Assembly (NCBI RefSeq): GCF_055900595.2
Contig: NZ_CM148325.1
Reading direction: 5' to 3' (one strand)
DNA: 64,000 nucleotides
Shown: in pieces, positions 36,892 to 37,068 of the stretch
How positions within the stretch are numbered: position 1 is the first letter of the stretch
Layout of the letters: the number at the start of each line of letters is the position of its first letter
The notes under the pieces: model-generated
The model's input: only the letters and a program-made list of their open reading frames with translations
The model's database searches: none
What the model was told of the DNA's origin: nothing
Translations under genes and position numbers: made by a program

Positions 36892-36936
36892 TTTCCGCGT
36901 CATGCTTCACGCCGCAGATGCGTTGGCTGCGCTCGT

Positions 36937-36977
36937 TCACCCCAGTCACATAGTTATCTATGCTCCTGGGGCTTCAC
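36937..36977. repeat. degenerate ERIC-like core between iscX and pepB
   Basis: caccccagtcacatagttatctatgctcctggggcttcac resembles the ERIC core, with conserved arms and a divergent centre. Confidence 0.4.
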
Positions 36978-37068
36978 TCACTTGCCGCCTTCCTGCAACG
37001 CGAATCATTTAGCGGAAAAATCCTGGGGCTGCCAACTGGCGGCCCTTTTACAAATAAGGATAACTAAA

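Follow-up and report, generated by a model that had tools for sequence, protein, structure and literature searches.

Whether the multicopy intergenic repeats called ERICs have a function as RNA or are no more than selfish DNA is an old question, and it is raised anew by a copy that lies between the genes iscX and pepB, next to the isc operon for iron-sulfur (Fe-S) assembly in Escherichia coli. This copy was studied in a stretch of 64,000 nucleotides from contig NZ_CM148325.1 of assembly GCF_055900595.2, referred to below as the window, and was followed through other E. coli genomes and other genera. As a finding the copy itself matters little: the repeat family to which it belongs as a normal member was described in 1990-91, and the K-12 reference carries the identical sequence. 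Accounts of this family, known as ERIC (enterobacterial repetitive intergenic consensus), IRU or RU-1, include those of Sharples and Lloyd from 1990, Hulton and colleagues from 1991 and Wilson and Sharp from 2006. What is added here is modest, namely deep orthology with covariation, together with alleles that in nature are empty, short or long. A single ERIC copy can be retained at its locus in seven genera or more, with coding-like conservation and compensatory changes, and such persistence bears on the question of function. The best explanation, and a likely one, is that the element is an old ERIC of the non-autonomous, MITE-like kind (a MITE is a miniature transposable element with inverted repeats), orthologous between genera and retained in the isc-pepB transcript as an RNA hairpin between cistrons. 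Judged by the sequence comparisons, it is ancient, constrained and structurally maintained, yet dispensable.

Identity of the element

The iscX-pepB element is a complete and ordinary ERIC, a repeat of an already known kind. Local alignment with the 127-nt E. coli ERIC consensus (PMC2759123 Table 1a, quoting Wilson & Sharp 2006) gave 98 identical positions of 113 (86.7%) without gaps, between consensus 7-119 and window 36898-37010. The alignment score of 151 compares with a mean of 16.4 (standard deviation 2.4, maximum 27) in 300 dinucleotide shuffles (z = 55.7), and extension of the alignment register to the ends of the consensus gave the element ends 36892 and 37018. It begins at the base directly after the iscX stop codon, with a gap of 0 nt, and the same abutment is found in all orthologous copies. 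A covariance model built from 11 full-length iscX-pepB copies scored the element at 156 bits (E 6e-36). Both primer sequences used in ERIC polymerase chain reaction (ERIC-PCR) match once in the window with three mismatches, where none would be expected by chance, ERIC1R at 36956-36977 (+) and ERIC2 at 36934-36955 (-); the two occur jointly in 246 papers.

A preliminary description of the window had recognized an ERIC-like core at this place, and the significant alignment to the consensus bears out that identification. The core bases quoted are present, ending exactly at 36977 as given and starting one base later than the 36937 given; the pattern CACCCCAGTCAC-N12-GCTCCTGGGG has a single occurrence in the window, at 36938-36971 (+), and no match in 100 dinucleotide shuffles, even allowing three mismatches. 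The core had been called degenerate, a term that does not fit an intact element of 127 bp with higher identity to the consensus than the copy between iscR and iscS (86.7% versus 75.4%). It had also been said to have a divergent centre. The centre does differ from the consensus, but the difference from CTTAC-TTAT-GTAAG to CATAG-TTAT-CTATG consists of two compensatory pair swaps, so that the 5-bp apical stem and its loop are retained.

The element has the features of the family, being about 127 bp long, with an imperfect palindrome that forms a long hairpin, core arms, terminal inverted repeats (TIRs) of the 7 bp given for ERICs (PMC2229807 Table 1), multiple copies, an intergenic location in a transcribed region, and the known variant forms, some with about 70 bp inserted at one fixed internal position and others deleted internally. 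It departs from the consensus in its termini, TTTCCGC/GCGGAAA rather than TATACCC/GGGTATA, and in its apical stem, CATAG/CTATG rather than CTTAC/GTAAG; both differences are compensatory and private to the locus and its orthologues. The terminal TA is thus missing, and the element ends in TT...AA instead of the TA...TA typical of ERICs. No TA target-site duplication could be reconstructed from filled and empty E. coli alleles, either for this ERIC or for the iscR-iscS copy, because the adjacent flank differs between the alleles and the insertion is old.

All 127 positions are identical in the K-12 MG1655 copy, at about NC_000913.3 2,656,409-2,656,535 (complement). The RefSeq K-12 record has no repeat feature annotated there, and a literature search found no paper that links an ERIC to yfhJ/iscX. 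Nevertheless, the copy is almost certainly among the catalogued K-12 ERIC/IRU copies already, as it is present unchanged in the reference. The ERIC consensus matches a median of 13 sites per E. coli genome (range 2-22); none of these copies is more than 95% identical to the consensus, the best listed reaching 90.6% and the best copy of a genome mostly 80-90%.

Orthologues and constraint

The locus was retrieved from one genome per species with IscX, giving 80 loci, in 72 of which pepB was found; iscX and pepB were adjacent in 72/72, with or without an ERIC. In 20 of the 80 loci a match to the covariance model began directly after the iscX stop codon or one base further on, with the + strand scoring higher every time, and three further remnants were recognized by eye. 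Orthologous ERICs with the same site, orientation and private signatures occur in seven genera, Escherichia, Salmonella, Citrobacter, Kluyvera, Enterobacter, Leclercia and Raoultella. Full-length copies are present in E. albertii, E. whittamii (long form), Citrobacter youngae ATCC 29220, Kluyvera genomosp. 3, Salmonella enterica subsp. arizonae, Enterobacter asburiae, Enterobacter sp. ENT03, Leclercia adecarboxylata (long form, with the insert site of E. coli), Raoultella ornithinolytica and R. planticola. The S. arizonae copy (locus L081) carries a different insert, of 70 nt, at another internal site than that used in E. coli. Internally deleted remnants are found in S. diarizonae, Enterobacter JUb54, Klebsiella spp., Kluyvera spp., Raoultella BIGb0138 and Siccibacter spp., and those of Siccibacter retain a consensus-type GGGTATA end.

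The signatures that the orthologues have in common are a centre of the CATAG/CTATG type, a right arm of CAACGCGAATCATTTAG and ends of the form TTTYYRC. The TIR variants are distributed roughly by genus, with TTTCCAC in Enterobacter and Leclercia and TTTTTGC in Kluyvera and Salmonella. In E. coli genomes that lack the element, the best paralogue is only 78-85% identical to it, which indicates that the signatures are private to the iscX-pepB locus; a close paralogue or subfamily as their source within E. coli was rejected on the same figures. Serratia presents a different picture, as its ERICs have consensus-type ends and are placed after the hairpin that follows iscX, in either orientation. These differences in site, orientation and ends mark the Serratia copies as independent insertions, and the region downstream of iscX thereby as a recurrent landing site for ERICs. 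They lie at about 1448-1593 of the retrieved loci, on the + strand in three (L010, L044, L048) and on the - strand in two (L080, L068).

Between E. coli and other genera the ERIC is 86-91% identical (72% for Raoultella), while the four-fold sites of the flanking iscX and pepB are 45-54% identical (Fisher p 4e-11 to 2e-17 against the ERIC). Within the genus, the comparison with E. albertii and E. whittamii gave 98% for the ERIC and 82-85% for four-fold sites. By sliding window the ERIC is about as conserved as the adjacent coding DNA, and the short spacer that adjoins it has diverged. Unpaired positions are 80-92% conserved in six genera; in Raoultella, paired positions are 88% and unpaired positions 53% identical. 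We conclude that the insertion is ancient and vertically inherited, that it predates the divergence of the seven genera, and that it has been lost or eroded many times. Recent horizontal spread was considered as a cause of the similarity across genera and judged unlikely, given the divergence of the adjoining spacer and of the flanking four-fold sites.

Structure of the element

The termini of the element form a perfect inverted repeat, TTTCCGC/GCGGAAA. Among the orthologues three consecutive TIR pairs covary (CG to UA, CG to UA and GC to AU), and an apical pair, at alignment columns 60/69, occurs as UA, GC or CG. In the alignment of 11 sequences, 97.3% of the cells are standard pairs and double-sided changes affect seven pairs and 17 cells. 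The covariation score was reached by none of 500 shuffles, and controls in which the structure was slid along the alignment had at most two such pairs. Internally deleted remnants also fold as hairpins closed by the TIRs.

Both strands of the element are predicted to fold in this manner, to different extents. The irregular TIR-closed hairpin of the + strand RNA has -42.7 kcal/mol (z -3.2), and for the TIR-closed hairpin of the - strand RNA the value is -64.8 kcal/mol (z -7.9). The - strand folds better because several A·C mismatches of the + strand become G·U pairs on the complement; on the + strand, cells that are not Watson-Crick comprise 43 A·C and 5 G·U. The bias goes back to the family consensus, and new events are split about equally between the two strands. 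Such a strand bias in the consensus hints that the ERIC family was founded by an RNA, or a DNA form, with a preferred strand.

Alleles in E. coli

Among 5,426 complete E. coli genomes the iscX-pepB ERIC is present in 3,289 and absent from 2,137 (39%). Among the genomes that have it, 2,976 show an identity of 99% or more. Three alleles can be distinguished: an empty one (39%), which is clean and has a spacer of 58 nt, a short one (about 53%), and a long one, in which a 69-nt insert is nested at a fixed internal site (net +67 nt), found in about 425 of the filled genomes or some 8% of all. The 69-nt insert, which is structured, occupies one and the same position within the ERIC in E. coli Q65 (locus L002, 598-666), in E. 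whittamii and in Leclercia adecarboxylata, and a diverged copy of it, about 81% identical, is found at yjfN-bsmA in a few E. coli strains such as D8.

The empty allele also differs in the hairpin that follows iscX, with the haplotype GGGCTGCC-TGGG-GGTAGCCC-GTTTTGCTGT, which is Citrobacter-like. When the ERIC-free allele of strain MEI1-1023 (locus L001, 501-558) is set against window 37019-37068, it does not look like a simple excision product: hairpin and tail read GGGCTGCC-TGGG-GGTAGCCC-GTTTTGCTGTTAAAC in the empty and GGGGCTGCC-AACT-GGCGGCCC-TTTTAC in the filled form, and the empty form resembles that of Citrobacter sedlakii and C. werkmanii. This suggests that two old haplotypes, or an imported spacer, segregate in E. 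coli. The three-allele polymorphism, along with the independent polymorphism of the iscR-iscS ERIC, provides ready contrasts for ERIC effects on the expression of an Fe-S assembly operon.

The ERIC between iscR and iscS

The preliminary description had placed another ERIC copy between iscR and iscS, and this copy is real, at 31656-31782 (+), with a covariance-model score of 86.6 bits (E 1e-18). Its 75.4% identity to the consensus corresponds to z 29.8, and neither ERIC-PCR primer matches it at three or fewer mismatches. Its core arms show compensatory changes as well, CTCCGG/CCGGAG replacing CCCCAG/CTGGGG. It is carried by 490 of the 5,426 E. coli genomes (9%) and is absent from K-12, where the spacer is 111 nt. 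The iscR-iscS spacer is regulated by RyhB, and the iscRS stability element within it (Table 1) is RyhB-related; a RyhB-dependent discoordination of iscR and iscSUA was reportedly described by Desnoyers and colleagues in 2009. In strains that carry it, this ERIC could alter the discoordinate regulation of iscR and iscSUA.

The two copies had been described as bracketing the isc operon, where they might demarcate transcript ends or be the relic of an ancient rearrangement. Two ERICs of the same orientation do flank iscS through iscX in the window strain. However, iscR is the first gene of iscRSUA-hscBA-fdx-iscX, so the iscR-iscS copy lies inside the operon and nothing is bracketed; the iscX-pepB element, for its part, is full length rather than a leftover core. 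Nor do the copies behave as a pair. They are only 66% identical to each other and occur in 61% and 9% of E. coli genomes. In a sample of 60 evenly spaced E. coli genomes typed by span length, of which about 7% had both, 59 fell into five classes, four with both ERICs, two with the iscR-iscS copy only, 32 with the iscX-pepB copy only (25 short and seven long) and 21 with neither, and the block from iscR to pepB was collinear in genomes of all four combinations of presence and absence. A rearrangement relic is hard to reconcile with this conserved order, whichever alleles are present, and with the adjacency of iscX and pepB at 72 loci. As for transcript ends, the candidate 3'-end signal is a separate hairpin, at 37025-37046, found at 77 of the 80 loci regardless of the ERIC. 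The bracketing interpretation as a whole is therefore highly improbable. The two ERICs are independent polymorphisms of unrelated origin; a recent duplication or rearrangement linking them was rejected on their 66% identity, their independent frequencies and the conserved gene order.

Transcription across the iscX-pepB spacer

The hairpin just mentioned, which begins 6 nt past the right end of the ERIC, conforms to a motif, GGGCTGCC-N3-6-GGYRGCCC, that is present with or without an ERIC, and at most ERIC-free loci it is found 6-12 nt past the iscX stop codon. A terminator scan that demanded at least five T in eight passed it over, since its T run is only four. It is a candidate intrinsic terminator, probably leaky, or else an RNA-stabilizing hairpin of the isc transcript. 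The hairpin is near-invariant across Enterobacteriaceae and Serratia, with a short U-run that is often GUUUGCU; this conservation exceeds that expected of a generic terminator, and the hairpin may serve RNA processing or stability in the iscX-pepB interval.

Transcription runs on into pepB, as published data indicate (PMC4055776, PMC5001579). In iscR mutants of E. coli and Yersinia, pepB-sseB is derepressed together with isc (PMC4055776, citing Giel et al. 2006), and a MazF cleavage site has been recorded in the pepB mRNA of MG1655 (Table 1 entry 'pepB 19' in PMC5001579). The latter is the ACA 19 nt before the pepB ATG, immediately 3' of the hairpin, which implies that the RNA spans the 3' side of the hairpin. 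ERIC-free alleles have 49-70 nt between iscX and pepB, which are occupied by the hairpin and a ribosome-binding site, so short a spacer that no room is left for a pepB promoter. A consensus scan of 36300-37300 found no promoter-like or terminator-like site on either strand. The lack of promoter room, the joint rise in iscR mutants and the MazF cut together imply that RNA crosses the iscX-pepB spacer, with the ERIC as an intercistronic part of it.

Proposed role and alternative explanations

Work on Yersinia offers a parallel for an ERIC in such a position. Yersinia ERICs beside stop codons have been reported to lower upstream RNA relative to downstream RNA (De Gregorio 2005, via PMC2229807, PMC3184786, PMC10969869), and according to reviews their 3' TIR contains an RNase E site (PMC10969869, PMC2229807). 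The stop-codon ERICs of Yersinia enterocolitica share with the iscX-pepB copy the abutment on the upstream stop codon, the co-transcribed intercistronic location, the RNA hairpin and the A/U-rich region of the 3' TIR, and it was for such a setting that a ribosome-dependent unmasking of an RNase E site was proposed. They differ in that the copy here is ancient and conserved, while the Yersinia work stresses mobility, with filled and empty sites and TA duplication. By analogy, an unmasking mechanism can be put forward tentatively for the iscX-pepB ERIC, as something possible rather than probable. Ribosomes that end translation at iscX would open the terminal stem for a short time, the opened stem would expose the A/U-rich 3' arm to RNase E, and access of the enzyme would adjust how stable the upstream isc segment is relative to the downstream pepB-sseB segment. 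Such a mechanism is plausible because the A/U-rich right arm (GAAUCAUUUAG) belongs to a hairpin whose base is 1-2 nt past the stop codon. Selection may mainly keep the inserted RNA folded and harmless, tolerating an intact hairpin or a clean deletion but not half-broken forms, which would fit both the conservation of the element and its frequent clean loss. It is further conceivable, although we rather doubt it, that the element is a domesticated MITE, a cis-acting RNA under purifying selection since before the split of Escherichia, Salmonella, Enterobacter and Raoultella, which would set the ratio or timing of isc-hsc-fdx-iscX and pepB-sseB expression from one polycistronic RNA. If this were true, the empty, short and long alleles of E. 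coli would be functionally distinct regulatory variants.

Several observations weigh against a maintained RNA hairpin or its proposed action. The element is dispensable, being absent from 2,137 of the 5,426 E. coli genomes and from most of the 80 species loci. The isc mRNA holds the orientation that folds less well (-42.7 against -64.8 kcal/mol), and the strand under selection is not revealed by the mismatches, since their bias is inherited from the consensus and new events are balanced. Compensatory changes in a palindrome can arise by template switching, without selection at the RNA level. The A/U-rich 3' arm is only a loose fit to the preferences of RNase E, and the assignment of this copy to the A or B orientation of the Yersinia work is taken from reviews.

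The main rival account, a possible one that we nonetheless find unlikely, is that the element is a selfish or neutral relic whose conservation and compensation result from DNA-level processes at the palindrome, such as template-switch correction or biased repair, or from the occasional exchange of alleles by recombination. Its dispensability in 39% of E. coli and at most species loci is what such a relic would show, as is its patchiness within genera: Citrobacter youngae ATCC 29220 has it and CCUG 30791 lacks it, and Leclercia and Kluyvera are mixed. The different hairpin haplotypes of filled and empty E. coli alleles suggest allele replacement, and new wobble and mismatch events have no clear strand preference. 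Hairpin-templated correction does not, however, explain the 80-92% conservation of unpaired positions in six genera, and the divergence of sequence directly outside the ERIC makes recent regional transfer unlikely. The rough sorting of TIR variants by genus and an identity far above that of four-fold sites also argue against a relic.

A further alternative is that a stable small RNA or antisense RNA is specified by the element itself, for instance one from the - strand that resembles V_AS5, an ERIC-like Vibrio RNA. The better fold of the - strand, the end-to-end match of the Rfam family V_AS5 to that strand and the 43 A·C against 5 G·U cells of the + strand are in keeping with this idea, but it is improbable in view of the empty promoter scan on both strands, the V_AS5 score of 44.9 bits, far under the gathering threshold of 96, the origin of the strand asymmetry in the family consensus rather than at the locus, and the + strand location of both flanking genes. 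A role as DNA, as a promoter or protein-binding site for pepB, is very improbable: pepB does need a source of transcription and the element lies 50 nt upstream of its start codon, but the scan found no sigma-70-like site, ERIC-free alleles express genes arranged in the same way without space for a promoter, and the reviews consulted give no DNA-binding motif in ERICs (PMC2229807 Table 1). Finally, an open reading frame of 36 codons with an ATG start runs through the element at 36902-37012, is open in several orthologues and has precedent in the open reading frames that ERICs are known to carry (PMC2759123). That it encodes a peptide is scarcely credible. A 1-nt deletion breaks the frame in Kluyvera and a stop codon does so in Raoultella, and every long-form allele has it interrupted as well; coding potential was rejected on account of these breaks. 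The ATG, moreover, belongs to a conserved stem and has no evident Shine-Dalgarno sequence, and substitutions show no bias toward synonymous changes.

Relation to other repeat families

Rfam has no ERIC family. Its entry V_AS5 (RF02818, Vibrio RNA AS5, 129 nt) is matched end to end over 36893-37017 (E 3e-7 to 6e-9), and its model centre, CAUAGA...CUAUG, resembles the unusual centre of the iscX-pepB copy. V_AS5 differs in belonging to the genus Vibrio and in matching the opposite strand, and the score falls so far below the gathering threshold that the element is not a member. A match to CssrA is likewise sub-threshold (25-27 versus 93 bits). Both can be read as homology at the level of the repeat, and V_AS5 itself looks like a Vibrio ERIC-type element.

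REP and BIME sequences are, like ERICs, palindromic repeats of transcribed intergenic regions and are able to shape segmental mRNA stability in operons, but they belong to another sequence family and size class (REP about 35 bp). The window does contain true REPs in other places, one case being 38345-38394. The Correia or NEMIS elements of Neisseria are also MITE-like, have TIRs and are co-transcribed as hairpins whose RNase processing alters the expression of neighbors (PMC2229807). They are unrelated in sequence, are processed by RNase III, and some have IHF sites or promoters.

Locus layout and neighboring features

The window is from E. coli, and the stretches tested are 99.8-100% identical to strain Z0117EC0005. 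The spacer between iscX and pepB occupies 36892-37068 (177 nt) and has the same length in K-12 MG1655, from which it differs by one base outside the repeat. Features of the locus are listed in Table 1.

Table 1. Coordinates in the window of the two ERICs, their parts and the surrounding features.
Feature	Position	Strand	Remarks
iscR	31167-31655	+	open reading frame and gene assignment
Second ERIC, 127 bp	31656-31782	+	abuts iscR stop codon
Rfam iscRS stability element	31785-31894		intact; downstream of second ERIC; 117.8 bits
iscS, iscU, iscA, hscB, hscA	between iscR and 36342 (hscA end)	+	
fdx	36344-36679	+	
iscX	36691-36891	+	open reading frame
iscX stop codon	36889-36891	+	TGA in window, TAA in K-12
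Complete ERIC/IRU (RU-1), 127 bp	36892-37018	+	oriented relative to iscX as the consensus in PMC2759123 Table 1a
Left TIR, TTTCCGC	36892-36898	+	family consensus TATACCC; pairs with 37012-37018 in every fold
Central core inverted repeat	36938-36971	+	arms CACCCCAG / CTGGGG around apical stem-loop
Apical stem-loop, CATAG-TTAT-CTATG	36949-36962	+	
Right TIR, GCGGAAA	37012-37018	+	after A/U-rich stretch GAAUCAUUUA
GC-rich hairpin, GGGGCTGCC-AACT-GGCGGCCC + TTTT	37025-37049 (stem-loop 37025-37046)	+	9-bp stem, 4-nt loop; followed by AC
ACA	37050-37052	+	19 nt upstream of pepB ATG; same sequence in K-12
pepB Shine-Dalgarno, AAGGA	37056-37060	+	from sequence; conserved in locus alignment
pepB start codon, ATG	37069-37071	+	from translation; conserved in locus alignment

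Further downstream, beyond sseB, Rfam identified ryfA (312 bits) along with a sub-threshold sraL-like match, the spans being 39270-39574 (-) and 39629-39757 (+); the ryfA match agrees with the K-12 annotation ryfA/timP/timR and is unrelated to the iscX-pepB ERIC. A pair of direct repeats, 38359-38462 and 9206-9309, is 104 nt long and 88% identical, with REP-like sequence in it. The copy just 3' of pepB is the counterpart of the 'RU-3' given for the 3' side of pepB in PMC2759123, and weak matches to the REP-derived Rfam family naRNA4 lie nearby.

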